A stretch of 64,000 nt of DNA from Candidatus Woesearchaeota archaeon. GTDB lineage: Archaea > Nanobdellota > Nanobdellia > Woesearchaeales > GW2011-AR9. The position numbers were made by a program, and so were the translations under genes. The DNA is taken from the NCBI GenBank assembly GCA_016188115.1, contig JACPIK010000002.1, positions 680,077 to 744,076 of the forward strand, read 5' to 3'. The notes beneath the pieces were generated by a model. That model saw only the letters and a list, made by a program, of their open reading frames with translations, was not told the origin of the DNA and searched no databases. Positions 2,492 through 60,069 of the stretch are shown one piece after another (the stretch's first letter is position 1; every line of letters begins with the position of its first letter).

Positions 2492-3396
2492 AGATACACC
2501 GCATAAAACGGCCCAACAATATCTTGACAGCGCCTCATCATTTTTGCGCAACGCAGGACGACATGATGATCTATTTTAGGATCTTTAAGTAAAGCTAGCA
2601 ACTCTTTATTCATAAAATGGTCTTTACGTTTTGCAAACATTTCTAAGTAGGAAATGTCTTTTTTGAAATAAGAACTAAAAAGTTCGTCAACAGTTTGAAA
2701 AATTGAAGTTACTATTGCCCTTGTTTTCTCAGATGATTTGATAGAAGAACTCTCAAGATAATGATATAAATAATCTACCTCGTTAGAAATCTTCTCAAGG
2801 TCGCGTACGATAAGATATTCAAAGATGCAAGTATCGCGAAAGCGTAAATTTTTGTTGAAAATCCGTTTAACATAGTCTGCATACCGAGTAATAATCTCGC
2901 GATATTCATGGACCTCATTGCCTCGCTTAAACGAATTTGTTACTAAATCTTCACCAATCTTACGCATATTTTCTTTTAACAAGTAGAAGCTTTTTTTGAA
3001 AAGTAATTCATATTCACTCTCCATCTCGACTGAAATATTTCGAAGCGTGCATTTTTTATCAGCAACATCCACAACCTCAAACCCAATGAGATTACGAGTT
3101 AGATTCTCAATTTCTTTAAATATAGAATGATCCTCAAAATGAACCTGGATTATATCATATCCCTTTTTGTACGCATTACTCAACTTTATTTTCATTAAAT
3201 GAATCGGCATTGAGCGCGATAGCGTGAGAGTAATCTCATTGCGACGTAACGCACCTTTGCCAGCCACCACCAACCGATTTTCCTCTTCTTCTATTTCAAT
3301 TACATCTCCTGCTTGGAGATTATGTTCTTGAAGCCATTTAGCAGGCAGAGTAACCGTAAGTGCATTATTTCCCTGTTTGACAAGTTTACGTTGCAT
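2488..3396 (-). CDS. AbrB/SpoVT-domain plus PhoU-like regulator
   Basis: The N-terminus VKQGNNALTVTLPAKWLQEHNLQAGDVIEIE is a swapped-hairpin AbrB/MazE-type domain. The long helical C-terminal domain resembles archaeal PhoU-homolog regulators. It is convergent with the kinase gene, and the two stop codons overlap at a TTAA. Confidence 0.55.
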   Translation of the reverse strand: MQRKLVKQGNNALTVTLPAKWLQEHNLQAGDVIEIEEEENRLVVAGKGALRRNEITLTLSRSMPIHLMKIKLSNAYKKGYDIIQVHFEDHSIFKEIENLTRNLIGFEVVDVADKKCTLRNISVEMESEYELLFKKSFYLLKENMRKIGEDLVTNSFKRGNEVHEYREIITRYADYVKRIFNKNLRFRDTCIFEYLIVRDLEKISNEVDYLYHYLESSSIKSSEKTRAIVTSIFQTVDELFSSYFKKDISYLEMFAKRKDHFMNKELLALLKDPKIDHHVVLRCAKMMRRCQDIVGPFYAVYL

Positions 3397-3515
3397 GTAG
3401 AGTAAAATAAGAATGGTATTTTTAAAATTTTCTATAAGTTATATAACTTCTATAAATTAAATATAATAAAAAGTAGTGTTGTCACTTGTTAATTACAATT
3501 AAGTGAGGGACAACC

Positions 3516-6707: not shown

Positions 6708-7226
6708 ATGCCTCTTTTAGCGAATCAAAGCCCCATTGTACTTCTTGAACCCCACCATGAAAAAGATCTTCTTAGAGAATTATTACGCCGGTTACAAGAA
6801 AAAAATTCTCTTAAATTTGAAGAATTAATCACCTTGTATACCCAAACATCCCCTCAAAAAACGATCCCCTGTTCAATATTTAATTACAATCTTCATCCCG
6901 CAGAAGCTCTCTGTAAATATCTTAAAGAAAACCAACATCTTACATTCCAACAAATCGCCCTTCTTCTAAATCGAAATCAAAAAAGTATGTGGGCTACCTA
7001 CCAACGAGCAATAAAACATCGCAAACAACCTTTTCCTCTCAAAGAAGAAACATTTATCATACCTTTAACTCTCTTTTCATCTAGAAAAAAGAGCGTGTTT
7101 GAAAATGTGGTTTTATATCTTACAACAACCTATCAGCTTTCAATTCCTGCAATAGCCCAGTTGCTTCAAAGTACCCCTGCATCTATACAAGTAATATTAA
7201 CACGGGCGAGACAAAAACATGACTAG
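6708..7226 (+). CDS. Putative DNA-binding protein with two sigma-70-region-4-like HTH motifs
   Basis: LTFQQIALLLNRNQKSMWATYQRAIK and LSIPAIAQLLQSTPASIQVILTRARQK both resemble HTH (sigma-70 region 4 / LuxR-like). The stop overlaps the start of the 1531-aa gene. Confidence 0.4.
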   Translation: MPLLANQSPIVLLEPHHEKDLLRELLRRLQEKNSLKFEELITLYTQTSPQKTIPCSIFNYNLHPAEALCKYLKENQHLTFQQIALLLNRNQKSMWATYQRAIKHRKQPFPLKEETFIIPLTLFSSRKKSVFENVVLYLTTTYQLSIPAIAQLLQSTPASIQVILTRARQKHD

Positions 7227-10200
7227 CGACCCTTGGCAATCGCGACAACGTCGCGTGGAAAAAGAACTAGAAAAAAACAACCTGCCTCAGACTATAAGAA
7301 GCAACACTCCTCGCTATGAAGTGATAGTAGAATCACCACAACCTAAACAAAAGACAAAAAAAGCCCCCCGACAAATCGCATGGAAAGCAGTTGCGCTCTT
7401 AATCATTATTTTCAGTATCAGTTTCCTATTTGTAACACAAACACCCTCTTCACAAAACACACAAAGTATCACTGGTGCAGCCATAACAAATGTAGACACT
7501 ACGGTCAAAACACCAACCTCAAACTTAACAACAGCACCAATCCCAGAAGAACAATATACCAGCAGTGGTATTGGGAGTCAGAACCCTTACCGCACATTAG
7601 GTAGTATCACCAACCCTAGTTTTGAAGACGCCATAACTACAGAATGGGTATATTCAGAAACTGACACAGAATTTACAGGAGGACGTGTCGCACCCACCAA
7701 TTACGTTCCAACACAAGGATCATATGTATATCTTTTAGGACAAGACACTTCAACTGGAGCAGGCGGTAGCCCCGTCCTTAATATTGTCCCTGGAGTCTAT
7801 TCACAAGTTTTGCAAACCATTGATCTCACTGACGTAACAGACATAAAGTTTGATACAAAATATATTGATTACTATGGCATATCCAGTTATTTCAACATTA
7901 GTGCATTTATTGATTCGACGCTAGTCTGGTCCAGATTGAGTATCGACTACCAAGCAGAGAATATTACATTGGATACCTCTACATATTCTGGCAGCCACGA
8001 TCTTAAATTTAGGCTTACAGGATTATTTACAGGAGCAATTTACGAACCAGCCTGGTTTATTGATAACATTAGATTAAATCAAACGGTTACGTATCTCATT
8101 ACTAATTATAATCTTACTCCTTCAATCGCATATTTTGACACACCTTTGATTGCGCAAGCAACATATAGCAGTAACGCAACAGGAAATGTTTCCTTTCGCT
8201 GGTCAATAAATGGACAAAATAAGTTTAACTTAACAAATCTCTCCGTAAATCCAAATTCTTATATTACTAATACCCTACAGCCAGGAAATTTTACAACAGG
8301 AGACTCAATTTCACTTTCAATTACAGGACAAAATGCAACAGATTCTTCCACTACCTCTCCTCTTACACTCACCATTTCAAGCTACACCCCAAATCTTACA
8401 TCCGTTCTCTTAAATACAACCCACAACACATATAGTGATAATGACAACTTAACATTATATCTAAACTCTTCGAGTCAGCAAGGGTTTACACTTCATAATA
8501 TTATTAATTGGTACAAAAATAATGTGCCATTATTAGTAGTAAATATGCCATTTGAACGAGTAAATGGCACTAACACCAACAATGCATATGACTATTCTAT
8601 ATACGCGCATAACGGCTCGGAAAATGGAGGTGTTGTCTGGAATCGCACCATTGGATATGGTACAACAGGCGCCTATATCTTTGATGGAGCAAACGATTAC
8701 CTTCAGATTGAACAAGTCCCCCAAATAACAAAAAATTTTAGTGTTGAATATTGGGTAATGCGAAATGGAACACGACATGAAGCGTTTGCATTCACAAACG
8801 ACGGTTCCCAAAATAAAGATGACCCCTTTAGTTGGGATGGAAACCAGATAAATATTGGAGATGGACTTAATCATGAAATAAAAACAGTCACTCTTGCCGC
8901 AGATACTAATGTTTGGACACATATTATTTTTACAGTTGATGGATCAAACAAAATATTGCGCCAATATAAGAATGGCACGCTAGTAGATGATCTTTCATTA
9001 ACATATACCCCTAGTTCATTTCCAAATAAATTTCTTCGTATAGGACGAGGCGGATTTGCCGAAATTTACACAGAATATTTTCAAGGAGCAATTGATAATT
9101 TTCGCGTTTACAACCGCACACTTACACCAGACCAAGTAAAACTACTTTATCAAAATCAAACCGATGTTATTGTACAAAATGAAACCTATCTCGGCGAAAC
9201 CTGGAAAGCCTGCGTAACAATCCATGATACCTTCGAATCTTCAAATAGCACTTGCAGTAATTCTATCACATTTGGTGATAACCACATACCCACTCAATTT
9301 CAACCAATTATTCAGTCACTCGATGCAACTACTTCAACATCTACTGATCTTGCATGTTACAATCAATCTACAACGGATTTTGAAAATGACCCTGTCAAAA
9401 ACATTTACAATTGGAAAGTCAACGATAAATCAATCGCTGTTCTCAACATGCCATTTGAAAATTACTCTTTAACTTACAGCGGCGAAACAAAAGATTATTC
9501 TGGGTACAATAATAATGGAACCAATACCAGTGGAGCATTCTGGAATGCCACCGGTGGATTTGATGGCAAAGGGGCATATCGACTTGATGGCGTTGATGAT
9601 TATATTTCAATAAAAAATAATGCTAGTCTTAACTTCGTAACCAATTATAGTATCTCATTCTGGACCAAGAATGAGGTTAGCCCTGCTAATTTTGACACAA
9701 TCCTTGCTAAAACAAGTGGTACTGGGTGGAGTGATGGATATGGAATATATTATTCATCCAGCAGTCAAATAAATTTTTGGGTAAGTGCATATGGCAGTGC
9801 ATACGCGTACGCCACCATTACACCTACATTGTGGAACCATGTTGTTGGAACATACGATGGCTCCACAATCAGAATTTTCGTTAACGGTGTAGAAGGCACG
9901 CCAGGAACGCGAACAACGCCCGCAACCAACACCGCCGCGTTAGAGATTGGAAGAGGTGCAAGTAATAGTTATAACATTGATGGACACATAGATGAATTAC
10001 TCATTTTTAATCGTAGTCTTAGTACAGATGAAGTAAAACTTCTCTTTCAAAATAAAACCAACACTACCTCATTTCGAGAATTACAACAAGGCGAAACATG
10101 GGCTTGTGAAATAACCCCCAACGATGCTCATGGTGATGGACAAAATAAAACCAGTACTGCTGTAACCATCAGCGCTAATACTATCCCTACAGTAACAGTA

Positions 10201-11814
10201 GCGTTTAACTCATCAACAAAAGACAATACCTCTGCTCAAGATCTTATGGTGTATCCAACGATCATCGATGCAGACCAAACCAGAACAACAACAATCGCTA
10301 ATTATCTCGTCAACAATAGTGAAATGATGTTGCTAAACATGCCTTTTGAAGCTAAAAGTAATACTACCAACACTACCGACTATTCACATTTCCATAATCA
10401 TGGAGTCGTAAGTGGACCATCATGGTATGCGCAAGGGGGAATCAACGGATCAGGAATGTATAGTTTGCATGGTGGCACCGACACAATAGTAATCAATGAC
10501 CAAGATTACCTTGATTTTGGAACAAATAAATCATTTATGTTTTGGTACAAACCAATATCGACAACAGCCAACCAACATGTCATGGGAAAAGGAAAAGGAG
10601 CAGGAACATACGAAGGATGTATAATGAGAATGAGCTCGACGCTCGCATTTCAATGTTATAATTCTGCAGGAATCGAAGATGTGTCAATAACAACAAATAC
10701 AGTACCATTAAATGAATGGAATCTTGTTTCTATTGTATTTTACAATAATAATGTTACATTCTACCTCAACGGCAATTATAATTCCTCTGACTTATCTTAT
10801 CAAGCAACTTATAATTCTGACTCACCCTTAAAGATAGGACAAGCGCAAACCGGATGGAGTGGTTCAGCCACAGATGGATTTGTAGATAATGTTCAAATTT
10901 GGAATCGCAGCCTTACACCAGAACAACTCAAAACCATGTACCAAACCCAACGAAATCTGGTTATCAACAGTAGTGAACTTAAAATTCATGATGTTTGGAA
11001 AGTCAACGTCACTGTGAGTGATAGCGTTGATAATTCTGTGGGAGTAATGAGCTCACCGATCACTATTCTTAATGAACCAGTAGGCAATAGTCCACCTAGC
11101 GCGCCATTACTTGTAGCCCCATCAAATCTCACCACTACCATCGTACGAACCCCGCAATTTAATTGGACAACATCCAATGACAGCGATGGTAATCAACTTA
11201 CCTACAACCTTGTTATAGATGATAACATTTTGTTCAACAATCTGGAAATAAATGTCACCGGAATTGGTAACCTTACTTCAGGTAATGTTACATATAATAT
11301 TTCAACAGAATTAGATGTAGACAAAACCTATTTCTGGCGAGTGCGAGCCAATGATGGAACAGATTTTGGACCATATTCAAATGTATCCAATTTCACCCTC
11401 AGTTCCTATCTAGCAATTACCCTTACTCAGGACACCATTAACTTTGGTAGTGTCTCACTTTTCACACGCGCCAACACCACATCAGGAACACCGCGACCAT
11501 TTAGAGCAGAAAACGTAGGAAACATTATTGCTAACGTGACCATCTCTGCTACTTCCTACTTTAGTTCTGTTCCTTTCCCTTCAAGTTATTATCAATTCAA
11601 AATACGGGAAAACGAAACAGGAGCATTTAATCTAACACATTCCAATACGAGCTTTATCAACATGGTTAACTCTACCATATTGCCTCACGTTTGGGGTCTT
11701 GATTGGCATGATTTCAAGAATGATTTTCTCGCGGACATATTAGTGCAATTACCAGATACAGAACCAATAGGACCAAAAAACTCAACAGTTACATTTAGTA
11801 TATCACAACAATGA
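7219..11814 (+). CDS. Giant cell-surface protein: N-terminal TM anchor, three LamG-like (concanavalin A-like lectin) domains, C-terminal fn3-like domain
   Basis: Three paralogous modules (LLNMPFE...DGxxDY..I...W.H....DG......YvNG......L.IG.....F.G.IDe..I.NR.L) are typical of the Laminin_G_3 jellyroll. Each is followed by an ETW.C..T..D motif. The C-terminal region (PQFNWTTSNDSDGNQLTYNL...YFWRVRANDG) is fn3-like. The N-terminal TM is AVALLIIIFSISFLFV. N-x-S/T sequons are very dense. Confidence 0.75.
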   Translation: MTSDPWQSRQRRVEKELEKNNLPQTIRSNTPRYEVIVESPQPKQKTKKAPRQIAWKAVALLIIIFSISFLFVTQTPSSQNTQSITGAAITNVDTTVKTPTSNLTTAPIPEEQYTSSGIGSQNPYRTLGSITNPSFEDAITTEWVYSETDTEFTGGRVAPTNYVPTQGSYVYLLGQDTSTGAGGSPVLNIVPGVYSQVLQTIDLTDVTDIKFDTKYIDYYGISSYFNISAFIDSTLVWSRLSIDYQAENITLDTSTYSGSHDLKFRLTGLFTGAIYEPAWFIDNIRLNQTVTYLITNYNLTPSIAYFDTPLIAQATYSSNATGNVSFRWSINGQNKFNLTNLSVNPNSYITNTLQPGNFTTGDSISLSITGQNATDSSTTSPLTLTISSYTPNLTSVLLNTTHNTYSDNDNLTLYLNSSSQQGFTLHNIINWYKNNVPLLVVNMPFERVNGTNTNNAYDYSIYAHNGSENGGVVWNRTIGYGTTGAYIFDGANDYLQIEQVPQITKNFSVEYWVMRNGTRHEAFAFTNDGSQNKDDPFSWDGNQINIGDGLNHEIKTVTLAADTNVWTHIIFTVDGSNKILRQYKNGTLVDDLSLTYTPSSFPNKFLRIGRGGFAEIYTEYFQGAIDNFRVYNRTLTPDQVKLLYQNQTDVIVQNETYLGETWKACVTIHDTFESSNSTCSNSITFGDNHIPTQFQPIIQSLDATTSTSTDLACYNQSTTDFENDPVKNIYNWKVNDKSIAVLNMPFENYSLTYSGETKDYSGYNNNGTNTSGAFWNATGGFDGKGAYRLDGVDDYISIKNNASLNFVTNYSISFWTKNEVSPANFDTILAKTSGTGWSDGYGIYYSSSSQINFWVSAYGSAYAYATITPTLWNHVVGTYDGSTIRIFVNGVEGTPGTRTTPATNTAALEIGRGASNSYNIDGHIDELLIFNRSLSTDEVKLLFQNKTNTTSFRELQQGETWACEITPNDAHGDGQNKTSTAVTISANTIPTVTVAFNSSTKDNTSAQDLMVYPTIIDADQTRTTTIANYLVNNSEMMLLNMPFEAKSNTTNTTDYSHFHNHGVVSGPSWYAQGGINGSGMYSLHGGTDTIVINDQDYLDFGTNKSFMFWYKPISTTANQHVMGKGKGAGTYEGCIMRMSSTLAFQCYNSAGIEDVSITTNTVPLNEWNLVSIVFYNNNVTFYLNGNYNSSDLSYQATYNSDSPLKIGQAQTGWSGSATDGFVDNVQIWNRSLTPEQLKTMYQTQRNLVINSSELKIHDVWKVNVTVSDSVDNSVGVMSSPITILNEPVGNSPPSAPLLVAPSNLTTTIVRTPQFNWTTSNDSDGNQLTYNLVIDDNILFNNLEINVTGIGNLTSGNVTYNISTELDVDKTYFWRVRANDGTDFGPYSNVSNFTLSSYLAITLTQDTINFGSVSLFTRANTTSGTPRPFRAENVGNIIANVTISATSYFSSVPFPSSYYQFKIRENETGAFNLTHSNTSFINMVNSTILPHVWGLDWHDFKNDFLADILVQLPDTEPIGPKNSTVTFSISQQ

Positions 11815-21925: not shown

Positions 21926-21948
21926 TCTTTATTTAAAATAAAAAAAAG

Positions 21949-22098
21949 CGTCCCGGACGTGACTTTCCTAACCTCTTGACTTAACGGTTTTGGTCAAGCT
22001 TTTCCAAAAGGTTGATTTGAACACGTGACCTGACGGTCTCTTTTCACAGATACTGTGAGTAACAGCCGTCCGCTCTAACCGGGCTGAGCCACCGGGAC
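21949..22098 (-). tRNA. tRNA-Asn (anticodon GTT) with two introns (canonical 37/38 and T-loop)
   Basis: Hand-folded. Acceptor GTCCCGG/CCGGGAC, D-arm GCTC-AGCCCGGTTA-GAGC, anticodon arm GACGG-CTGTTAA-CCGTC interrupted by about 22 nt (plus 22038..22059), variable loop AGGTC, T-arm ACGTG-TTCAAAT-...-CACGT interrupted by about 53 nt (plus 21962..22014). The discriminator is G. A T8 run follows the 3' end. The mature length is 75 nt. Confidence 0.7.
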
Positions 22099-22186
22099 AC
22101 CAAAACGCAAGTACTGTAATCGATTTATAAAGATTTCTGCGTCCGCAAGCAATTTGTTCAAAGCCTTTAAAAAAGCTAGATGAAAA

Positions 22187-22522
22187 ATGAGAAGAATGAA
22201 TACTGATTCCACAATAGACCAATATGTTCGTATACGAACAGAAGGACTGTTCATATCTGATATGGTCTCAATTTACCGCCAAAGCAGAGCATTTTTAGAA
22301 ACAACCCCTGGACCATCCCCTAAAAAGCCAGAATATTTTTTTGTTCCATCGCCAGGCGATTATGTAACAAGTATGACACGAAATGAATTTGTAGCAGTAG
22401 CAAAACAAGAATTTCGCGATCTAACTTCTCCTACTTTACCTAGAGAGATAGCAGGAATGGGTGCCGAAGCAATGCTTGGATTTCAAATTGTTCTCAAACA
22501 ATATGATCTTGAAACAAAATAA
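22187..22522 (+). CDS. Hypothetical protein
   Basis: ORF only. Confidence 0.3.
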   Translation: MRRMNTDSTIDQYVRIRTEGLFISDMVSIYRQSRAFLETTPGPSPKKPEYFFVPSPGDYVTSMTRNEFVAVAKQEFRDLTSPTLPREIAGMGAEAMLGFQIVLKQYDLETK

Positions 22523-23634: not shown

Positions 23635-26568
23635 CTAATCAAATTGGTTTTTCCAAGCAGCATAGCGAGCATAAATTGGACCGACATACACTAGTTCCAT
23701 ATAATCGCCATTTCCGATTTGTTTTCCTTTATAGGTTCTCACTCTAACATTCATCGCACTCTTAACCGCAGACCACGTTTTTTGACCCTGTGCAATACGA
23801 ATGTATCCATTTACCGCACCAGGACCATCATGATACGCTAAAATTGCTAATTTAATTTGATCTTCCAGTGCAGCGCCTTGATAATTTTGCAAAAGATTAG
23901 CGAATAATTTTGCTTGAGCTTGTATTGAAAGTTCAGGATTAAATCGCGCATCATTTTGTGGAGTGCACATATAGGTACCCTCTTTCCAGACCCTACCCCA
24001 TCTCGCAACTTCATTCATACATCCTTGCCTAGTTTCTTTCTCATTCGGTTCTAAATTTCCACAACACATAACAACTTGATTTGCCCCAAAATAGCTCTTG
24101 GCAGTTTTATAAGTAAATTGAGCCAGCCCAACTGCTCCCGCAGTACTAACTGCCCGAGTGCTAAATCCTGATTCTTTTGAAGTAACTGCTTTAAGTAAAG
24201 AAGGAGGCACATTATGTTCTTCACCATATTTTTTAAACCAAGTATCATATTTTTCTACATTATCCTCGGGAATATCAAAAATAGGTTTTGGACCATCATC
24301 TTCGTCAGCAACACTTGCCACAACAGGAGCAGGATACAATACTGCCCACGGCACAAAGCCAACACCAGTTTGATAGACATATTCCCCCGCAAGAATAAAC
24401 GGCGAAACTCGCCTCCACGCTTTATCAATATTTTTGACTGATTCAGAATACATCTCTGAAATCGCTTTGGTTGTCTCAGGAGCTGACTCACCACGCGGTT
24501 TAACAGACCCATAACCTTCTGAGCTAGGATCAAATGGTTCATCATCTGCAGGAGGAGTTAGATACTCTTGATAGAGCAGCGCATATATTGCTCTTGCCCA
24601 AAGTTTTCCACCAAGCCCGCCTTGTCCAGTATAATGGATTCCATCTCCTCCCGTATATTGAACAGCATCCGTAAGAGTATTAGCATCAATAAAACGACAA
24701 CGAGATTCGACAAGAACTTTAAGAGCTCGATTGATTCCCAACGTATCTACTTTTCTATTAGTTGAAGCTGGCGCGCCTACCCATACACATTTTTTACCTG
24801 ATGAAACAACCTTCTCTACCAGCGAGTTAATATTTGCTGCTTGATTATTAACTCCCTGTGCAGTCAAAAAGTTTGTTCCTAAAGAGATTATAACCATTTC
24901 GGGATTAAATGCAGACAATTGATTTTCAAAATTAAATGGAGTCTGAATAAGATTGCTTGGTGTCTGGCTACCAACCAAGACTAATGATCCTGCCGGATTC
25001 GGTCCAGTTGGTTTCCCCCCACTATCTCGCTTTTCATTACACACTTTATAATTTACTTTATCAAAATTACTTGCAGCTGCCCCTCCACACGCATACGTTT
25101 GAGCTGCAACATTTTTTTGAATTAGTAATCTGTGTAACTCTTTTCCATACGCACCAACAGAATGAGAATCGCCAATGTGCAGTACACTTGAAGGACCAGC
25201 AATCGAAGAACCACTGTATTGTGACATATCCTCTTCTAAAGGATTCGCATTCTTTGCCAGCCAGTCATCAACGCACTCTTGATCATCTGGATCGCAGATA
25301 TCGGCAAGATATGCTTCAGTTTCACTACTAGTAGCAGCGATCGTTTCCTCAGTGTATATATCTTGTATCATTTCACGATAAATCGCCTTACAATAATAAT
25401 ATCCCCCACAAGCATAGTCATCACAATCAACACCACCATCCCCATTATCATCAACACCATTAGTACAATCTTCTACACCATCTTGACTCGAAGATCCTTC
25501 ATCTGAATCCGAAAAGAGACCTGAGTTTAACTGACGATAAATTGCTTTACAATAATCATCTTCACGACAAGCATAATCCTCACAATCAACACTGCCATCC
25601 TCATTATCATCAGCATTATTAGTACAATCTTCCACAGGGATCTCTTCTTCAGTAGGCTCAGCAAGACCTCCCGTCTCTTCATCAACTGCCCCATCCCCCG
25701 CAGCAGCAGCAACAGGATGTACTGCCGGAGCAGAAGTAGGAGAAGAAGGTTCATCAGGAACTAATTCAATTGTATAAGTAAGATCAGAACCACTATTTGC
25801 ATCCGTTGCCGTAGCACCCGCTGGTACATCATTACGTGCATACATCTCATCAGTCGCTGGAGCAGGAGCAGAAGTTGATTCATCAGAAGGATCTAATAAA
25901 ACGTCAATCGTGCCATCTGGATTTACCCGAGCACCATTATTGAAACCTTCCTCACCAGCAGAATCAGCAGGAACAGAAGGATCAGCCCGACACAATAATG
26001 CGCCATTACGAAAAACATTCTCATCAGCAGTATAAAGAACATATAGCCCTTTCACCATGTGTGTACGTGAATCATAAAACCCACTAATTCCGCGAACTTG
26101 AATCGATTGAGTACGAAGATCACAAGTAAATTTATGTTCAGTATAAGCTTGTGGTAGCGTTGATTGGATAGGTACACTAGGAGTTTCGCCACATACCGCA
26201 GCAACTGAAACAATCCCTTCAACCCCATTCTTAGTCGCAGCAATAGCACTAAGACCATTCATAAATCTACCAGCACATCCAGAATCACGTAATACCAATT
26301 CCTCATTACCAATTATAACATTAGATTGATCCTGACAAAATAAACCTAAAGCATCAATAAAACCTGATCGATCTACACTTGCTTGAATCCCCAACGCTGC
26401 TTGTCCATCAGGACAAAGTAATGTAAACGGTTGACCTACCATACTTCCAAGAAGACGACTGCCTGTCTCCAAAAATCGAACATCATTCTCTGCCAAACCA
26501 CCCACTACTAAGATTAACAGTGTAAATAAAACCAAAAATCCAAACCGTTTCATTCCAACACGTTTCAT
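23635..26568 (-). CDS. Secreted multi-domain hydrolase: signal peptide, N-terminal beta-rich domain, Cys/Asp-rich Ca-binding-like repeats, SGNH/GDSL esterase domain, C-terminal family-1 lytic transglycosylase (SLT, GH23) domain
   Basis: Signal FGFLVLFTLLILVVGG. Two copies of EDCTN..DDN.DG.VDC.DYAC...YYCKAIYR. SGNH blocks VLHIGDSHSVG, IISLGTNF, GGDGIHYT. SLT catalytic motif ESGFSTRAVSTAGAVGLAQF and AYHDGPG. Last gene of a four-gene overlapped operon. Confidence 0.7.
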   Translation of the reverse strand: MKRVGMKRFGFLVLFTLLILVVGGLAENDVRFLETGSRLLGSMVGQPFTLLCPDGQAALGIQASVDRSGFIDALGLFCQDQSNVIIGNEELVLRDSGCAGRFMNGLSAIAATKNGVEGIVSVAAVCGETPSVPIQSTLPQAYTEHKFTCDLRTQSIQVRGISGFYDSRTHMVKGLYVLYTADENVFRNGALLCRADPSVPADSAGEEGFNNGARVNPDGTIDVLLDPSDESTSAPAPATDEMYARNDVPAGATATDANSGSDLTYTIELVPDEPSSPTSAPAVHPVAAAAGDGAVDEETGGLAEPTEEEIPVEDCTNNADDNEDGSVDCEDYACREDDYCKAIYRQLNSGLFSDSDEGSSSQDGVEDCTNGVDDNGDGGVDCDDYACGGYYYCKAIYREMIQDIYTEETIAATSSETEAYLADICDPDDQECVDDWLAKNANPLEEDMSQYSGSSIAGPSSVLHIGDSHSVGAYGKELHRLLIQKNVAAQTYACGGAAASNFDKVNYKVCNEKRDSGGKPTGPNPAGSLVLVGSQTPSNLIQTPFNFENQLSAFNPEMVIISLGTNFLTAQGVNNQAANINSLVEKVVSSGKKCVWVGAPASTNRKVDTLGINRALKVLVESRCRFIDANTLTDAVQYTGGDGIHYTGQGGLGGKLWARAIYALLYQEYLTPPADDEPFDPSSEGYGSVKPRGESAPETTKAISEMYSESVKNIDKAWRRVSPFILAGEYVYQTGVGFVPWAVLYPAPVVASVADEDDGPKPIFDIPEDNVEKYDTWFKKYGEEHNVPPSLLKAVTSKESGFSTRAVSTAGAVGLAQFTYKTAKSYFGANQVVMCCGNLEPNEKETRQGCMNEVARWGRVWKEGTYMCTPQNDARFNPELSIQAQAKLFANLLQNYQGAALEDQIKLAILAYHDGPGAVNGYIRIAQGQKTWSAVKSAMNVRVRTYKGKQIGNGDYMELVYVGPIYARYAAWKNQFD

Positions 26569-27122
26569 TCGACCCTAAACCTCTTGACTAATGAAATTCG
26601 CTTATCTAATAACGGATTTTCCACCATGATTTCTACTTGATATTCACCCAGATCAGGATTATCTCCAAGCGTAAAATAATCTGCAAACGCCGCAGGTTCA
26701 TTTTCTTTTGTAGATTCGTGTTCTAACAGATAGGAATTTTTCTCTTCCAAATTAAGAATAATATTGCCCTGAGGATTAACAATGCGATAATTTCGCACTA
26801 ACATGATTTGATTATCATATGTACTACTCTGCACTAAGAACCGTAAATAGATTTCATCGCCTTTTGCAAACACATCGGTTTTTTGATAACAATTAAACTT
26901 CACATCAACATACTTGCAAAAATCAAACTGACGAATCTGAAGGTCACCGCCGCGACCTAAAGGAATAAATTCTGTATTAAGAAGACTAACCTGTTGCGCT
27001 TGATCTGAACTTTCCTCAAATGCACCAACATAAATTAACAGTAACATGATCCCTGTTGTAATCGCCGCAACAATCGCAATCACCGCCACTTGTACCAGAA
27101 CTGAACCTTTGTTGGAGATCAT
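26565..27122 (-). CDS. Small N-terminally membrane-anchored extracellular protein (operon member)
   Basis: TM VLVQVAVIAIVAAITTGIMLLLIYV. Start and stop overlap the flanking genes by 4 nt each. Confidence 0.45.
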   Translation of the reverse strand: MISNKGSVLVQVAVIAIVAAITTGIMLLLIYVGAFEESSDQAQQVSLLNTEFIPLGRGGDLQIRQFDFCKYVDVKFNCYQKTDVFAKGDEIYLRFLVQSSTYDNQIMLVRNYRIVNPQGNIILNLEEKNSYLLEHESTKENEPAAFADYFTLGDNPDLGEYQVEIMVENPLLDKRISLVKRFRVE

Positions 27123-30100
27123 GATGAGCCCCCCCCGGAATTACATTGTGCTTCCAAGATTGGTTTAGTCGCTGCACTTGCTGCAGAAATTTGAAAGTTA
27201 GCTAGTTCTACTCCATCACTAATTTTACATGCTTTTGCTTCGGTTGCGCTAATACATTTATACGCATAAACAGAATCAGTAATAGGCAGAGTATACCCCT
27301 TAGCACCACAAAGAGATGAATCTGCTAAAGCCCTCTTCGCAGCAGCCACTTTCCCTTCATTACAATATTTCACAACACCTTTGTTAAACTTCTTATCTAC
27401 CTCACATAAATACGCATAGATTTTGTGAAACTCATCTGTATTTTCAAGATCGTCATCATCCGTCTCTTCACTTCCTTTATCATAACCCGCAGCTATATCA
27501 CCAGAATAATCCCGCAAGAAGAAATATTTCAAAAGATTATCAATATTCACAGCGTACGTTTCAATACTGCCTTGTTTTTGTCCTTTCATAATCAACGATA
27601 AAATTTCATAATACAATGTCATCACGTTACTCATGTCGCCTTGTAATTTCTGCAATTCCTCGGTCGCAATCTCATGAACACGATCATAATTTTCTTGCAT
27701 AAAGAAATCATGAACTCCGCCAAGTTCAGCAATAGCCATTGGTTGACGCTGAATACGCACAAGTTGAACATGACGATTTTTACCAATTGCCGGTTGTTTA
27801 GTAACTTGTGTTGCAAACGCACAGCCCTTGCTTTCATCCTGATCTAATAACTCATACACTACCTGAACATCTTTCCAATTATTCTGTGTTGCATAGACAC
27901 TTCTCTTCGACACTCGATAAGTACATTGTAATGGTTGCGCAGAAAAGTCTGGTTGACCAATCACTTGACTAATCACAAACCCGTCTGCATTAAATTGTGC
28001 CGCGTTGGCATTTTCTAATGACATAGCTGCAACACCATCTTTTTGCAGCAACCCGCCAGTGATAGAATACCCATTACGTGAAGAAGTAGACGTTAACGAC
28101 GCATCAGCAGGAACAGTAACTTGCACAAGAGTGTTTTGCACCTGAGTAAACGAGAAGACAAACTCATTACGATCTTGCACGGTTTCAGGAGACCCAAAAT
28201 AATTTGGCTGATTTGGACATCCCGCATTACTTGGAGCTCCATTCACTTTTTCTAATTGATTTGACATTCCGCCAAACATTGTCTCCGTTACTGGACCTAA
28301 TACATCTTCTTTGAGATATGTTCCTTGCACATTCTCTGGAATGACCGCAGCCCCCACTACTTCAGGAACACCTGGAAGATTTCGCACCGTACGTCGTAAA
28401 CACATCCCTTTGCCATTCAAAGCAAGATTAACACGTACACGAATATCATCATGTTCACTCGCAACAAAAATATTAGGAGTGCGACAATCAACCCATTTAT
28501 CATTGCGTTTATCATAACATTCCATATACGGAGATTCAATCGCTGCTTGACCAGTACCGAACAGACTTGCTAATTCAGGACAATCATACCGACCCGACAC
28601 AGCATCAACAGTACAAGTAGCAACACCAGGAGGAGTAACATCAGTAATTGGTTGATACCATACTCCTTTACGACCAGAAAGAACCTCTTTATCAAAACAT
28701 AATTCTGGATTTTCACCAGGATCTAATTCCAGTTCTACTTTAACGTGATCGTAACGGAAATGAGAATCGACACGTTGAGGTGTTTCAATAGGCACACTAA
28801 ACATTCTTCCTCCTTGAATGTTCATACTCGTATCAATAATTTTTTCACGTTCACCAGCAAATTCGGGTGCTTTGCTCGCGCGTAAACAATCGCAACCTTT
28901 GCCATTACACGATTCATCCACACCAAAAAATCCTCGATCTTCCGGACCAATGCATTCCAAAGACACTTGTGAACGAGTAATCTTACAACCAGGCATAACA
29001 ATAACACCAATTTCATAATTATGAATGGCTGTTTCTTTTGCAGGGTTAAATGTACTTAACTCACGAAATGCAGGAGCAACCACAACAGAACTATGTGTTG
29101 GAAACGCATATGCCGCATCTAGTAAAAAGTCCTCACTAAATAAAGGAAAATCAAACCCAAATGCTGCCATACACATTGATTGCGCAAATCCCTGTGCGCC
29201 ACCTTGGAAGTAATTATTTAATTGCGCATTACCATAATCACTTTTGATATCATTCACCGATGATTGCAGCGCACTCGACATCCCTTGAGTGCCTTCCTTA
29301 AGCACAACGCCAATATCTTCAAACGCACCGCCTTTTCCAATATCATCAAAGTTTGAAGGTGTACAGCTTGTAAGCATCGCTGCAACTCCTTTATACACTA
29401 AACCACAGACATTCTGACTAAACCAGGTCTTACACGCACCCGCATCATATAATCCAGTATATTTCGCTTCAACTAAACAATTACGTAATCCAACTAAGAT
29501 ACTCTCAATCATCACCATGTGTTTAAGAATACCTGAGGTGCACATTGTTTGCACGGATTCAATAAGACCAGCATGAGGATCTACTTTTGCAACCTGTTTA
29601 TCCTCACCACGAATATAATCAATCAAATAATCCTGACCAAACGCGCCAGAAAAATCACGTCCATGATAATAGCGAATCGTTGGATAATTTGTTCCAAACT
29701 TGCCATTTGATTCTTTAAAGATACGTTCCTCTCGATAGAACCACTCTTCCTCAACACCGGGTTTGTATTTTCCAATTTCTACAGCAGTGCGTAAACTACG
29801 GTCTCCACTTGGTTCTATTGACGCATCCGGTTTCTTACCCATACATACACATTGATAGAATTCAGGCTCTTTATTTTCAGTAAATGATTCAATAAAACAA
29901 TCTTTAGTATATCCCGTGGCATACCGTTCAGTTTTATCAACAGTACCTAATTTTTTACCATTTTTATCATATAACTGAGTAATTCCACTTTCATCTTTAC
30001 CTTCTTTATAACAGCCTTTTCCTAAATGTCCCAGATCAGAATCAGTTTTAAACTCACCACCATACCTTCCTTTATAGGGGTCAGTACAAGCTTCTTGACA

Positions 30101-32878
30101 AGAAATATCTCTTCCAGCAATAAGACCCTCAGATCCAGGGGGTTGATAAACAACAAGTCTTTCAGATTTTTCTAGCCCACCTAATAATTTATTCGCGGAA
30201 CGAAGATGAAATACGCCTACTTGTTCATCACGAGGAACTTGTTCACTAGGATCCATAAAAAAGACAGTATCACTTCCATCTCCTTTAGTCCAACATTTTG
30301 CAACATCTTTAGTGTCTATAGTTAAACCAGTAGAATCTGCTTTCAATCTTTCCTGACAATTCTCCAATGGAATCAATGGTGCACCACGTCCCGTCACCGC
30401 GCATGCATTCTGCTCCTGTATGACATTATTAATCTGTTCTTCAGTCTTATCCTCTGTCCATCCAGCAGGAACAGCACGGCAAAATGCGCGATCACACGTC
30501 CAACGATATGCTGTATCCAACGCTGCTTCAAATTTCCACGCCGTTGTCGTCGAATCACACTGCTCATCAAGAGTATGCGCTTTTGTGTTAGGACCATCAA
30601 CAAGACCCCCATCAGCCTCATACCAATCTACAACCGCTTGAGGTAAATCTTTTTTATATTGTTCATCAGCTTTGATAAGAGCATACCAATTCTCCAGCGT
30701 TTCACGCATATACAAATTATTTTGTTTAAGCGGACATTTACCGCTGCTATCAAACCCTTCCCCTTTCTGCTTCGCTTTTGCTTCAGGTTTTGCTAATTCA
30801 AAATATGATTCTAAACGTGATGTTGCCACACGCACACCACGACTTACCCATCTTCCTAAGAAAGACGCAATACAACTTACTCCCGTAATCAAATAGGCTG
30901 TTTCGACATACTCACGCGCAGTTTGTAATTGGGTAATTGTCCAATTTAATGCTGCAACACCATCATTCGCAATAAAGTCCGGAATTAAATCAGCGCTATC
31001 AACAGGAATATCCACAAAATACCCAATATCTTGACAAGTAGTTTGGGTTTTAGTTCCACTCCATTTATCCTCTCCACCCTCGGCTTTGCCTTCCCGTTCT
31101 TCGTATTCAATAGAAATCTTAATAGGAAACATTAATTGCCGTTTCTTAAAATCATTCCAAAAATCGTCTTCTTTCTTACTAAATTCCGCAGCCCCAATCA
31201 GTGTCCACGTTGCATAGACCGCTTCCTCACCTTTCAATGGTCGAGTAGAACCCGGCATAAGTTGACAACCAAGACCAAATTTCTCATCTTCTTGCATTGA
31301 TTGCGTACACGCTTTCTCAATACGCACATTCTTTATTCTATAAGCTCGTTCATAGACTTCCCCACTTTTATCAAGTACCGGCGTGCCTTGACCTAAATAA
31401 TTAAACTTAAAGACTGCTTGAATTTCCTGACGCCCTTCATCAAGTAATGTTGGATTCAACGCATACGGTGTTTGGAATTTAACCATATTCTCAACACCAA
31501 ACGCCAGATCGCCCGACGCGCAGGAATTAACATTAACCGTTCGCTGCCACGAAATTGATTTACCGCTTTCGTCTTCCGCAATTAAAAAGACATGATATGT
31601 TGCCTGTTGTGCTGCAGCAACTGCTTCCTGAATAGGAAAAATAGTATATTCTAACAACTGGATGGGAACTTCTCGAGGTGTTAATTTTTTAGCCGTAAGT
31701 TGATCACGCAAAGATAAAGAAAAATCAACATCTTTAAAGCGAAACGACCCATTTTGATCTGCTTCGACAACTTTTACTGCACGACTAAAATCAGGATGAA
31801 ATTCGTATCCTTGCGGTCGATAAATGTACAAGTACACTTTTGCTCCAGGTTCTGTTTCTCCTGAAATGGAAGATTCAGCTCGACCTTCATAAAATTGATA
31901 TCCCTTCTCTATCTCTGCGCGTAACGTGGGAGCGCGCGTATCCGCTTTCACTAAAAACTGCTTCTCGCTTTGCCATCCAGCCCGATCCGCTGCCACAACC
32001 ACAATAGTATTATCGCCTTCTTGTAAGCTTACTTCCAAAGAAAAGAAAGTAGTAGGAGGACTTTGCGCAACAGAACGATTGTTAACAAATATTTCCACGC
32101 TTGAATTTTCGCTAATTGTCCCATTAAGAACGATCCGATTCTCATTTGCAAATTCTTCAATAGGAATCAATTGAACCACAGGTTTGTGAGTATCGGCAAA
32201 AACCACAGTAGTAGTATTAGCTTTATTGCCAAAGGCATCAGTTGCTTCAATAAAAATAAGATTTTCTTTTTCTGCATCAAGTGTAATTCCACTCACTTTG
32301 AACTCACCATCAGTAACACCAGAACTTGCACCAACTGCCTGCGTGCTTGCGCCCAATCGACCATTTACAAGTACCCGTACACTTGCTCCATTCTCTGCTG
32401 TTCCATTAAAAGAAAGAGAAGTACCTTGGATAACTTCCGGTAGCACGACCACCACTCCTGAAGTAGAAAGATCCTGCGCTGCTGTTTGAAATGAATAATA
32501 ACTTCCCTGCGCATCATCAACCACATCACCGCTTTGCACTTTATATTGATACGTCGTTTGGGAACTAAGACCAGACAAAGGCAATCGATGCTCAATAACC
32601 TCATCAGCATCACCACGTCGCACAAACTCAGCAGGATCAGTGCCAAACTCAACAAAACTATTTGCCGCTTCATCAGTTTCCCATGCAAGTATTGCGCTAT
32701 CCTGCGTAACATTTTCAGCACGCACATGAGATATCTCAAGCGCAGAAACCAACGTCGTATTCACCAGTAAAAAGAGCACACCAAGTACCATTATCTTCCA
32801 AGCAGTACTACTAACGTAACTACCCCTGTAACTTCTTGCGTGACTACTCGTGTGTTTTGTTTTTACCATGTTAATCAT
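27119..32878 (-). CDS. Giant (1919 aa) secreted/surface protein with N-terminal fn3-like and Ig-like repeats and a large Cys-containing C-terminal region
   Basis: Signal-anchor IMVLGVLFLLVNTTLVSA. fn3-like ISHVRAENVTQDSAILAWETD...TTYQYKVQS. Repeated beta-rich segments. No catalytic motif recognised. Confidence 0.6.
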   Translation of the reverse strand: MINMVKTKHTSSHARSYRGSYVSSTAWKIMVLGVLFLLVNTTLVSALEISHVRAENVTQDSAILAWETDEAANSFVEFGTDPAEFVRRGDADEVIEHRLPLSGLSSQTTYQYKVQSGDVVDDAQGSYYSFQTAAQDLSTSGVVVVLPEVIQGTSLSFNGTAENGASVRVLVNGRLGASTQAVGASSGVTDGEFKVSGITLDAEKENLIFIEATDAFGNKANTTTVVFADTHKPVVQLIPIEEFANENRIVLNGTISENSSVEIFVNNRSVAQSPPTTFFSLEVSLQEGDNTIVVVAADRAGWQSEKQFLVKADTRAPTLRAEIEKGYQFYEGRAESSISGETEPGAKVYLYIYRPQGYEFHPDFSRAVKVVEADQNGSFRFKDVDFSLSLRDQLTAKKLTPREVPIQLLEYTIFPIQEAVAAAQQATYHVFLIAEDESGKSISWQRTVNVNSCASGDLAFGVENMVKFQTPYALNPTLLDEGRQEIQAVFKFNYLGQGTPVLDKSGEVYERAYRIKNVRIEKACTQSMQEDEKFGLGCQLMPGSTRPLKGEEAVYATWTLIGAAEFSKKEDDFWNDFKKRQLMFPIKISIEYEEREGKAEGGEDKWSGTKTQTTCQDIGYFVDIPVDSADLIPDFIANDGVAALNWTITQLQTAREYVETAYLITGVSCIASFLGRWVSRGVRVATSRLESYFELAKPEAKAKQKGEGFDSSGKCPLKQNNLYMRETLENWYALIKADEQYKKDLPQAVVDWYEADGGLVDGPNTKAHTLDEQCDSTTTAWKFEAALDTAYRWTCDRAFCRAVPAGWTEDKTEEQINNVIQEQNACAVTGRGAPLIPLENCQERLKADSTGLTIDTKDVAKCWTKGDGSDTVFFMDPSEQVPRDEQVGVFHLRSANKLLGGLEKSERLVVYQPPGSEGLIAGRDISCQEACTDPYKGRYGGEFKTDSDLGHLGKGCYKEGKDESGITQLYDKNGKKLGTVDKTERYATGYTKDCFIESFTENKEPEFYQCVCMGKKPDASIEPSGDRSLRTAVEIGKYKPGVEEEWFYREERIFKESNGKFGTNYPTIRYYHGRDFSGAFGQDYLIDYIRGEDKQVAKVDPHAGLIESVQTMCTSGILKHMVMIESILVGLRNCLVEAKYTGLYDAGACKTWFSQNVCGLVYKGVAAMLTSCTPSNFDDIGKGGAFEDIGVVLKEGTQGMSSALQSSVNDIKSDYGNAQLNNYFQGGAQGFAQSMCMAAFGFDFPLFSEDFLLDAAYAFPTHSSVVVAPAFRELSTFNPAKETAIHNYEIGVIVMPGCKITRSQVSLECIGPEDRGFFGVDESCNGKGCDCLRASKAPEFAGEREKIIDTSMNIQGGRMFSVPIETPQRVDSHFRYDHVKVELELDPGENPELCFDKEVLSGRKGVWYQPITDVTPPGVATCTVDAVSGRYDCPELASLFGTGQAAIESPYMECYDKRNDKWVDCRTPNIFVASEHDDIRVRVNLALNGKGMCLRRTVRNLPGVPEVVGAAVIPENVQGTYLKEDVLGPVTETMFGGMSNQLEKVNGAPSNAGCPNQPNYFGSPETVQDRNEFVFSFTQVQNTLVQVTVPADASLTSTSSRNGYSITGGLLQKDGVAAMSLENANAAQFNADGFVISQVIGQPDFSAQPLQCTYRVSKRSVYATQNNWKDVQVVYELLDQDESKGCAFATQVTKQPAIGKNRHVQLVRIQRQPMAIAELGGVHDFFMQENYDRVHEIATEELQKLQGDMSNVMTLYYEILSLIMKGQKQGSIETYAVNIDNLLKYFFLRDYSGDIAAGYDKGSEETDDDDLENTDEFHKIYAYLCEVDKKFNKGVVKYCNEGKVAAAKRALADSSLCGAKGYTLPITDSVYAYKCISATEAKACKISDGVELANFQISAASAATKPILEAQCNSGGGSS

Positions 32879-36601: not shown

Positions 36602-36691
36602 TGCGGATGTGTCGGAGTGGTCAAACGAGCTACCTTGAGGGGGTAGTGGCTTAGTGCCTGCGCAGGTTCGAACCCTGTCTTCCGCACCATT
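36602..36691 (+). tRNA. tRNA-Leu (anticodon GAG), type II long variable arm, CCA encoded
   Basis: Hand-folded. Acceptor GCGGATG/CTTCCGC (one U-U mismatch at 6:67), D-arm TCG-GAGTGGTCAAA-CGA, anticodon arm CTACC-TTGAGGG-GGTAG, 15-nt variable arm, T-arm GCAGG-TTCGAAC-CCTGT, discriminator A, CCA, then a T5 run. Confidence 0.8.
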
Positions 36692-37214: not shown

Positions 37215-37766
37215 CTATTTCGTTCGACTCACACACCCATTCTCTTCCATCCAAAATCGCCACTCCAAATGTGTATCTCGCGTGATCCCAATGCGAGCCC
37301 CTTTAGCTACCATAAAATTTCTTAATCCGTCATCTAACAGCTTTATCTTCACTCCGGCCTTAGTTCCATTAAATGCCCCATCAATTCCCAATGCTGAACA
37401 TAATTTTCCGGGACCAGAACATAAATCAACAATTTTACTCTTTCCACGCCGCTTTCGCATCTCTTCCAATCCCACGAGTGGTTCTGCCGCGCGAATCAAC
37501 ACTGCCCCCGCATCATCTTTCTCAGTTGTAAAATTCAAACACCAATACATCCCATAAATAAAATAAACATACACATGACCATAGGTATCATACATTAACG
37601 CGCTACGTGACGTTCTCGTAAACGCATGCGACGCCCCATCTCGTTTATACGCCTCTGTTTCAACAATTCGTACCCGACAACCATCAACCTCAATGATTTT
37701 ACCAATCAGTTCTTGCGCAACCACCACTGAATCACGAGCAAAAAACGAAACAGGAAGAGATTTCAT
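37215..37766 (-). CDS. 3-methyladenine (methylpurine) DNA glycosylase, MPG/AAG family
   Basis: FFARDSVVVAQELIGKII...IVETEAY...ASHA...YVYFIYGMYWCLN...AVLIRAAEP is the family signature. Confidence 0.8.
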   Translation of the reverse strand: MKSLPVSFFARDSVVVAQELIGKIIEVDGCRVRIVETEAYKRDGASHAFTRTSRSALMYDTYGHVYVYFIYGMYWCLNFTTEKDDAGAVLIRAAEPLVGLEEMRKRRGKSKIVDLCSGPGKLCSALGIDGAFNGTKAGVKIKLLDDGLRNFMVAKGARIGITRDTHLEWRFWMEENGCVSRTK

Positions 37767-40279: not shown

Positions 40280-41302
40280 ATGTCCCTATTACCCCCAGAA
40301 CTCATTAACAAAGCGTTAAATCTCGGACTTCTCAGAGTAAATGGCACTCGTCATGTTAATGCCCATTCTATTGATGTTCAAATAACCGACACCCTCTGGA
40401 CCGAACAAGACGGAGCCATCACTATCCCTCCAGAAGGATTCGTTCTTCAACCCGACCAAGTGTATGGAACAATTCTGGATCAAGCTATTCTTCTTAAACG
40501 CGAATTTATTGGAGAAATAACCACTAGAAGCAGTTATGCTCGCCTAGGAACCCGTTTAGACCCAGGACCGGCGAGTACAGATTTAACAATTGGAGGAGAT
40601 CGTGAATTCACCCCAAGATGTAATTTGGACACATTTGGCACCCATGTACGAATCTATCCTTACGAACCAATAGGACAAATATTTTTTCACACTCAATTAG
40701 AACAATTACTTGCAGAAGACATCAAAGCAGCCATGGATAGTGGAGATTTTGTAATATATAATGGCGATCGCCAACTCAGTAAGCGAGACGTAACATTTCA
40801 GCACGCACTCAAACTACACATGGATGATGTTATTCACGTTTATAAGAAAGGAAAGATCCTTGATACACGCGATAAAGACCATTCACAAGACTTTGAAACC
40901 GTTAACCTACGTGACCACCCTGAAGGATATTATCTTCCAAAAGGAGCATTCTTTATCTCTTCATCACGTGAAAAATTTGCAACGTCTAATAAGTGTGTTG
41001 CCTATGTAACACCAACAATCAATTTACGACCAGCAATGACTATAACTCAATATCCTGATCCCAACCATTTCACATTAGTTCCCTTCCTTACACATCCCAA
41101 TGCGCCTTATCATGCCTATGGATTAAATAATCTGCGACAAATGACATTTGAAAACTATGTCACACAACTCGAAGGAGTATATCTTCATGCAGGATGTAAA
41201 CAAGCAGAACTTGTTCTCGTACCATTTCTTAAACCAAGCGAACAAACCATGGGATCTCGTTATGCAGGACAGGTTGGCGCAACATTACGAAGAGCAGAAT
41301 AA
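40280..41302 (+). CDS. dCTP deaminase-like (dUTPase superfamily, long DCD-type) protein
   Basis: The RSSYARLG...DPG motif matches conserved motif III of dUTPase/dCTP deaminase. Confidence 0.45.
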   Translation: MSLLPPELINKALNLGLLRVNGTRHVNAHSIDVQITDTLWTEQDGAITIPPEGFVLQPDQVYGTILDQAILLKREFIGEITTRSSYARLGTRLDPGPASTDLTIGGDREFTPRCNLDTFGTHVRIYPYEPIGQIFFHTQLEQLLAEDIKAAMDSGDFVIYNGDRQLSKRDVTFQHALKLHMDDVIHVYKKGKILDTRDKDHSQDFETVNLRDHPEGYYLPKGAFFISSSREKFATSNKCVAYVTPTINLRPAMTITQYPDPNHFTLVPFLTHPNAPYHAYGLNNLRQMTFENYVTQLEGVYLHAGCKQAELVLVPFLKPSEQTMGSRYAGQVGATLRRAE

Positions 41303-49491: not shown

Positions 49492-50061
49492 TTGACAAAA
49501 AAAGGGGTGAATATAATGGATGTAGAAAGAATTCAGAAAATAAATGCTCTTGCTCTTGAACTTATGAAAAAGGGACTAGCAAGCGATAGAGAAAACGCAG
49601 TAATGCAAGCAGAAGAAGTATTCAAAAGTCAACACGCAGGCGATTACCGTGAAATGCGTTCCACATTAAGTGCAGTGCAAGAAGTAGCACAACCACGTCG
49701 TGACGCAAGCTCCCAAATCGACCTTAGCCAAGATCGTGTTAAAGATATTCTTGAACAAAATAGCAAATTCTTAGTGCAAAAAATCAGAGAGTTTCAAGAA
49801 AAGATGGATGCTATGGAACGTGAAGTAGAAGGACTTAAAATCAAGTTAAATTACCAACGCCTTCCTACCGCAGCAACAGTAGTATCAAATCAACCTGCAG
49901 GATCAGTACCTATTCAAGCACCAGCATCAATGCATGTTCCACCTATGCCTAGCTCCGGTTCTCAAGGTGGTGCAGCAGCACCAGGTAGCCATCCTCGCTC
50001 GGGCAACTTTAAAGATACTGATGTATCCATTGAGAAATTCTTTTACATGGGTCACAAATAG
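49492..50061 (+). CDS. Hypothetical protein (helical N-domain, Pro/Ser-rich C-terminus)
   Basis: ORF only. Confidence 0.35.
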   Translation: MTKKGVNIMDVERIQKINALALELMKKGLASDRENAVMQAEEVFKSQHAGDYREMRSTLSAVQEVAQPRRDASSQIDLSQDRVKDILEQNSKFLVQKIREFQEKMDAMEREVEGLKIKLNYQRLPTAATVVSNQPAGSVPIQAPASMHVPPMPSSGSQGGAAAPGSHPRSGNFKDTDVSIEKFFYMGHK

Positions 50062-59955: not shown

Positions 59956-60069
59956 GGGCCCGTGGTCTAGCGGTTACGGAAAAATCAATTCCGCCACAGA
60001 TGACAGCGCCCTTACAAGGAGAAATCCTCTGAAAGGCGTTAGTCCCCGGTTCAAATCCGGGCGGGCCCA
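59956..60069 (+). tRNA. tRNA-Val (anticodon TAC) with two introns (D-loop region and canonical 37/38)
   Basis: Acceptor GGGCCCG/CGGGCCC, discriminator A. D-arm GTC...GAC interrupted by about 24 nt (CGGAAAAATCAATTCCGCCACAGA). Anticodon arm GCGCC-CTTACAA-GGCGT interrupted by a 17-nt hairpin intron (AGGAGAAATCCTCTGAA). T-arm CCCGG-TTCAAAT-CCGGG. The mature length is 73 nt. Confidence 0.75.

Follow-up and report, generated by a model that had tools for sequence, protein, structure and literature searches.

A first-pass annotation had placed, at positions 21949-22098 of this DNA, a tRNA-Asn gene interrupted by two introns, one of them inside the T-loop. The locus raises the question of whether such an arrangement corresponds to a functional gene with introns of the archaeal type, to a tRNA gene inactivated by an insertion, or to a fortuitous resemblance to a cloverleaf. 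The comparisons described below lead us to conclude that, very probably, the locus is a tRNA-Asn(GUU) gene that functions in its host, a Candidatus Woesearchaeota archaeon (DPANN), and that carries two bulge-helix-bulge (BHB) introns. Hereafter, the window designates the whole stretch of DNA that was analysed (64 kb).

Genomic context and anatomy of the gene

The genes identified with Pfam in the window encode TFB, GatD, archaeal LonB, a PAC2 proteasome chaperone, an AMP-phosphorylase-like DeoA, TYW3, a Trm61-like methyltransferase, DnaK/GrpE/DnaJ and a protein with a SLT domain. The presence of TFB, GatD, LonB, PAC2 and TYW3 identifies the window as archaeal. TYW3, a protein of the wyosine pathway, is encoded at 52876-53514 (minus strand). 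The SLT lytic-transglycosylase domain belongs to a protein of 977 aa (23635-26568, minus strand) that also shows a weak match to GDSL lipases and might serve to degrade cell walls in an episymbiotic lifestyle. Giant unannotated ORFs of 1919 aa (27119-32878) and 1531 aa (7219-11814) are present near this protein.

The tRNA-Asn gene is located 24 nt from a gene encoding a NUDIX protein, whose sequence is identical to that of a protein assigned by NCBI to Candidatus Woesearchaeota archaeon. The coordinates given by the first-pass annotation proved to be exact, and the strand, which it had left unstated, is the minus strand. The gene is composed of three exons and two introns:

21949-22098, minus strand: complete tRNA-Asn(GUU) gene, 150-nt precursor body, defined by in silico splicing and by syntenic orthologues from Woesearchaeota
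22060-22098, minus strand: exon 1, tRNA positions 1-37 (acceptor 5' strand, D-arm, anticodon stem 5' strand, C32 U33 G34 U35 U36 A37)
22038-22059, minus strand: intron 1, 22 nt, at the canonical position 37/38 (BHB, hBHBh' motif)
22016-22037, minus strand: exon 2, tRNA positions 38-59 (anticodon stem 3' strand, variable loop AGGUC, T-stem 5' strand, U54 U55 C56 A57 A58 A59)
21963-22015, minus strand: intron 2, 53 nt, at the non-canonical position 59/60 in the T-loop (placed by its BHB and by a clean indel relative to the orthologue L059, see below)
21949-21962, minus strand: exon 3, tRNA positions 60-73 (U60, T-stem 3' strand, acceptor 3' strand, discriminator G73)

The reverse complement of 21949-22098 reads GTCCCGG TG GCTC AGCCCGGTTA GAGC G GACGG CTGTTA (22 nt) A CCGTC AGGTC ACGTG TTCAAA (53 nt) T CACGT CCGGGAC G, with G1 at 22098 and the discriminator G73 at 21949; the CCA end is not encoded. 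Once both introns are removed, the resulting 75-mer is called as tRNA-Asn(GUU) by ARAGORN at default stringency. Its stems of 7/4/5/5 bp are all perfect, its T-loop is UUCAAAU and it exhibits the conserved nucleotides U8, A14, G18G19, U33 and U54U55C56. The spliced exons have a GC content of 62.7%, versus 38.5% for the whole window. Two other GC islands of the window (37441-37525 and 49921-50015), considered as candidate hidden RNAs, were rejected because both correspond to coding sequence.

The three exons are collinear, on a single strand and within 150 nt, which rules out a split or permuted tRNA gene. An ORF of 84 aa with a TTG start codon (21968-22222, minus strand) lies on the same strand as the tRNA-Asn gene and overlaps it; this ORF is almost certainly spurious.

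Detection by tRNA finders and other tRNA genes of the window

No ARAGORN call was obtained with the unspliced 150-mer, in agreement with the original claim that the cloverleaf emerges only without the 22-nt insert after position 37 and the 53-nt insert. The gene was missed by ARAGORN in default mode, by ARAGORN in intron mode (-i) and by a permissive Rfam tRNA covariance model, so that the remark that standard finders would overlook it was correct. ARAGORN does recognise intron 1 when intron 2 has been deleted. With a lowered threshold, this program reported a tRNA-Asn of 96 nt (22002-22097) whose 3' half is wrong. Lowered-threshold ARAGORN calls of a tRNA-Gln (40387-40464) and a tRNA-Arg (28696-28910) look spurious.

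A regional Rfam search in 'evalue' mode (E<=10) detected no family on the tRNA-Asn region and two chance snoRNA matches outside of the gene. The whole-window scan in 'gathering' mode produced zero matches; however, it overlooked even a plain tRNA-Leu, whose score of 48.3 bits in 'evalue' mode on its region exceeds the gathering score of 29. The negative result of the whole-window scan is thus uninformative, and the regional 'evalue' run is the valid one.

Besides tRNA-Asn, the window contains two tRNA genes:

59956-60068, plus strand: tRNA-Val(UAC) with two introns, whose spliced 73-mer forms a perfect cloverleaf
59976-59999, plus strand: D-loop intron of tRNA-Val, 24 nt, at about position 20a/21 (HBh'-like)
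60017-60033, plus strand: intron of tRNA-Val at the canonical position 37/38, 17 nt
36603-36689, plus strand: intronless tRNA-Leu(GAG) with an encoded CCA, detected in the Rfam 'evalue' run

The tRNA-Val(UAC) gene was also missed by default ARAGORN. Two of the three tRNA genes of the window (tRNA-Asn and tRNA-Val) therefore carry two introns each, which points to a property of the genome rather than to an accident at a single locus. With default or bacterial-mode finders, this genome would seem to be devoid of both tRNA-Asn and tRNA-Val(UAC), distorting estimates of completeness for DPANN MAGs as well as inferences on codon usage.

Bulge-helix-bulge motifs at both junctions

We defined a BHB as a 3-nt bulge, a central helix of 4 bp and a second 3-nt bulge on the opposite strand, with cleavage after the second nucleotide of each bulge. 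The drawing of such motifs at both junctions had been proposed as a check of the gene, and a BHB in exact register can indeed be drawn at 37/38 and at 59/60.

For intron 1, the outer helix corresponds to the anticodon stem (5 bp) and the inner hairpin has 6 bp. Three of the four pairs of the central helix are formed (C32-G, U33-A and U35-A, with a G34.A mismatch) and the two bulges are UA^C and AG^A. This motif was the top-ranked BHB in an unbiased scan of the precursor, and shuffled versions of the intron match the observed BHB pairing with P = 2.9e-4.

The case of intron 2 is more complex, since the 53-nt insert has, by sequence alone, four equivalent placements (59/60, 60/61, 61/62 and 62/63). 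Only 59/60 yields the BHB geometry, which locates the insert inside the T-loop, as originally proposed. The T-stem provides the outer helix (5 bp), with AG^U60 as the 3' bulge. Three of the four pairs of the central helix are formed (U54-A, U55-A and C56-G), the fourth being an A57.G mismatch. On the other strand, the bulge A58 A59^U (5' bulge) is followed by a C.A mismatch and then by an inner helix of 9 bp (9/10 pairs), itself capped by a second hairpin of 7 bp. As the C.A mismatch adjoins the 5' bulge, the latter sits in a 5x2 internal loop. The naive BHB scanner used here is noisy and missed intron 2 owing to this C.A at the first inner pair, the motif being placed by explicit diagrams. 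Shuffled versions of intron 2 match its observed BHB pairing with P = 4e-5. Both motifs retain the full BHB geometry with a single mismatch in each central helix and can thus be considered as only mildly relaxed.

In the global MFE fold of the precursor (z = -4.1), the acceptor, anticodon and T stems are formed, as are the hairpins of both introns, but the central helix of intron 2, weak with its 3 bp, is open. For the T-arm and intron 2 considered together, the BHB conformer is less stable than the local MFE fold by only 1.1 kcal/mol.

Orthologous tRNA-Asn genes

A scan of a genome collection with an anticodon-arm pattern retrieved tRNA-Asn genes from several DPANN MAGs. Four of these loci (L024, L029, L059 and L099) are collinear with the window over the segment DnaK-GrpE ... 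NUDIX - tRNA-Asn - Fpg, with ~66-75% nucleotide identity. The locus L099 is labelled 'Methanosarcinales', yet its synteny with the Woesearchaeota window and its GC content of 33% indicate that this label is probably erroneous. After in silico splicing, all orthologues were identified as tRNA-Asn by ARAGORN.

The most informative orthologue is L059, from Candidatus Woesearchaeota archaeon nzgw60 (JAHFSP010000002.1, tRNA-Asn at ~3388-3484, minus strand). Its exons are identical to those of the window at all 75 positions, whereas the flanking genes are only ~66-75% identical. Intron 1 is present, with the same length of 22 nt and one substitution located in a bulge. Intron 2 is absent: the pairwise alignment displays one clean gap of 53 nt, with no other gap inside the gene, and the T-arm is contiguous. 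L059 can be viewed, in effect, as a natural spliced control for intron 2, and on the basis of this alignment we consider it as the decisive argument. With the perfect 75-nt cloverleaf and the BHB register, this orthologue with identical exons bears out the proposal of a tRNA-Asn with two introns, one in the T-loop.

Introns at 59/60 are also present in other lineages, with a length of 34 nt in L075/L116 and 42 nt in L099, and with unrelated sequences. These introns exhibit complete central helices (4/4 pairs, UUCA/UGAA), the same AA^U bulge as intron 2 and in-register inner helices; in L075 and L099 too, the BHB geometry selects 59/60 as the insertion site. At this recurrent position, the structure is preserved although the sequences are not, a pattern characteristic of functional BHB introns and not of damage. 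Another position, 53/54, is occupied by a 23-nt intron with a 4/4 central helix in L029 and in three metagenome copies (L112, L114 and L118), and the single inner-helix difference among these sequences preserves pairing (A-U to G.U). The orthologue of L115, a JGI contig of 1.56 Mb, contains an insert of roughly 30 nt in the D-arm, and the tRNA-Asn genes of L024, L025 and L082 are intronless. The tRNA-Asn orthologues of Woesearchaeota thus differ in these introns, which are located in the T-arm (53/54 or 59/60) or in the D-arm, or are absent.

A metagenome scan with a 30-nt pattern from exon 1 gave no match, and a second one retrieved only near-duplicates of known loci, plus L113 and L115. A search with homologues of the adjacent NUDIX gene revealed no further syntenic tRNA-Asn. 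One Logan contig (L001, from SRR12113419) is 100% identical to the window and ends inside intron 2 (window position 22009), which could be due to an assembly break or to population heterogeneity at this site.

Putative transcription signals and proposed maturation of the precursor

Putative transcription signals frame the gene:

22122-22141, minus strand: putative archaeal promoter, 20-nt block CGCAGAAATCTTTATAAATC, composed of a BRE-like purine run and a TATA box
22131-22124, minus strand: TATA box TTTATAAA, ~30 nt upstream of G1
21940-21947, minus strand: run of eight T (T8), putative archaeal transcription terminator, two nt after the discriminator and conserved in L059

The 20-nt block is identical at all 20 positions in L059, in the middle of a diverged spacer, and a similar AAATCTTTATAAATA is present upstream of the L115 orthologue, suggesting that it functions as a promoter. 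From its position and conservation, the T8 run would likewise act as a terminator.

Transcription would start a few nt upstream of G1, from the BRE/TATA promoter, and end at the T8 run. The splicing endonuclease EndA would then cut both BHB motifs, at 37/38 and 59/60, between the second and third nucleotides of the 3-nt bulges, leaving 2',3'-cyclic phosphate and 5'-OH ends as in archaeal tRNA splicing (review PMC4090602), and a RtcB-type ligase would join the three exons. Finally, a CCA-adding enzyme would complete the 3' end post-transcriptionally to produce a standard 75-nt tRNA with G73 and the GUU anticodon. As intron 2 breaks up the T-loop, one can speculate that the folding and modification of this loop, for example m1A58 formation by the Trm61-like enzyme, take place after its excision. 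The window encodes a GCD14/Trm61-like m1A58 methyltransferase (54843-55574, plus strand), whose target adjoins the 59/60 intron site. No gene for EndA or for a ligase was detected by Pfam among the ORFs of the 64-kb window; from the literature on DPANN (PMC5829648), EndA would be expected elsewhere in the genome.

Pseudogene, other type of insert or chance resemblance?

An alternative to a functional gene would be a pseudogene, in which the 53-nt piece is a recent, unspliceable insertion inactivating the T-loop, with tRNA-Asn being supplied by another gene. The absence of intron 2 from L059, the two mismatches around its 5' bulge and the opening of its central helix in the MFE fold could be interpreted in this way, and an uninterrupted tRNA-Asn gene elsewhere in the genome is conceivable, our view being that of a 64-kb window. 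However, the register of the insert is exactly that of a BHB, its inner helix has 9 bp, shuffled introns rarely match this pairing and two other lineages have introns at this very site. Moreover, the exons, promoter and terminator are all intact and identical to those of L059, the tRNA-Val gene of the same window is disrupted in a similar style and small archaeal genomes usually have one gene per anticodon (PMC4307357). We thus consider a pseudogene as very improbable.

The inserts could also belong to another class, i.e., group I or group II introns, remnants of a mobile element or hosts of a C/D-box sRNA. C/D sRNAs are indeed hosted by some archaeal tRNA introns, and nothing more specific speaks for this explanation. 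Group I or II introns are much longer than these inserts of 22 and 53 nt, their ribozyme core alone having hundreds of nt. The Rfam search matched no family on the region, neither RUGAUGA nor CUGA boxes are visible in intron 2 and no repeat copies were found in the window or in the retrieved loci, making such an origin extremely improbable.

Finally, the probability that there is no tRNA gene and that the cloverleaf is an artefact of choosing two deletions freely is practically negligible: such a choice does leave much latitude and no gene is detected by the default tools, but this reading is refuted by the 75/75 exon identity and contiguous T-arm of the diverged, syntenic L059, and the four perfect stems with their conserved nucleotides, the GC island, the TATA box and the T-run all fit a gene.

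Intron turnover

Returning to a functional gene with two BHB introns, intron 2 appears to be evolutionarily young or labile, since its gain or loss separates orthologues whose exons are identical. The first-pass annotation had proposed that such non-canonical introns are a phylogenetic marker. This idea may hold at most at fine scale; at depth, the number, position and sequence of the introns all vary between orthologues, and the fact that intron content differs even with identical exons indicates very labile elements that are poor deep markers.

It is conceivable, although we regard it as unlikely, that intron 2 is a very recent gain and that 59/60 is a recurrent insertion hotspot in Woesearchaeota tRNA-Asn; this possibility is raised by the unrelated intron sequences that three lineages carry at this position. 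[quoted passage not shown]

Comparison with known systems

Positions 20/21, 53/54 and 59/60 are documented sites of archaeal tRNA introns, and both the presence of several introns in one tRNA and relaxed hBH/HBh' motifs have been reported in Archaea (PMC4090602). In DPANN, tRNAs were predicted by Kaneta et al. (2018) for one Woesearchaeota and one Pacearchaeota genome (PMC5829648), and members of this superphylum, including a Woesearchaeota genome, are reported to combine an EndA of the L3-loop alpha4 type with increased tRNA disruption and incomplete tRNA sets (PMC5829648). The epsilon2 EndA of ARMAN-2 contains a specific-loop insert that has been linked to the disrupted tRNA genes of DPANN (PMC3239211). 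A splicing endonuclease of relaxed specificity, as suggested by the first-pass annotation for this lineage, is plausible by analogy and agrees with the literature on DPANN EndA (PMC5829648).

In the open-access literature, we found no paper describing this tRNA-Asn gene or the intron-2 polymorphism. Our analysis adds a case, proven by alignment, in which two orthologues share the same exon sequences but differ by the presence or absence of a T-loop intron. It also shows that, across Woesearchaeota, positions 59/60 and 53/54 have been used repeatedly in a single tRNA family. According to the published view, non-canonical substrates are tolerated by the endonucleases of DPANN and introns of this kind turn over rapidly; the present observations support this view and change no concept.

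The tRNA-Asn gene resembles the situation described in Thermoproteales for the gain and transposition of introns (Fujishima et al., 2010, as cited in PMC4090602), in that close orthologues differ by a non-canonical intron, implying recent gain or loss. It differs from the transposition in Thermoproteales in that a sequence search found no similar copy of intron 2 in the window or in the retrieved loci. [quoted passage not shown] Unlike the catalogued multi-intron tRNAs, which are mostly from Thermoproteales (PMC4090602), its host belongs to the Woesearchaeota (DPANN) and each of its BHB motifs has a single mismatch in the central helix. The gene is also a case of the disrupted tRNA genes described in DPANN (PMC3239211; PMC5829648), which belong to the same superphylum and probably rely on the same enzymology. 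With intron positions that are already documented and a superphylum known for many disrupted tRNAs, the disruption of this tRNA-Asn gene is of a known kind, expected in a DPANN lineage, i.e., a sound but ordinary finding.
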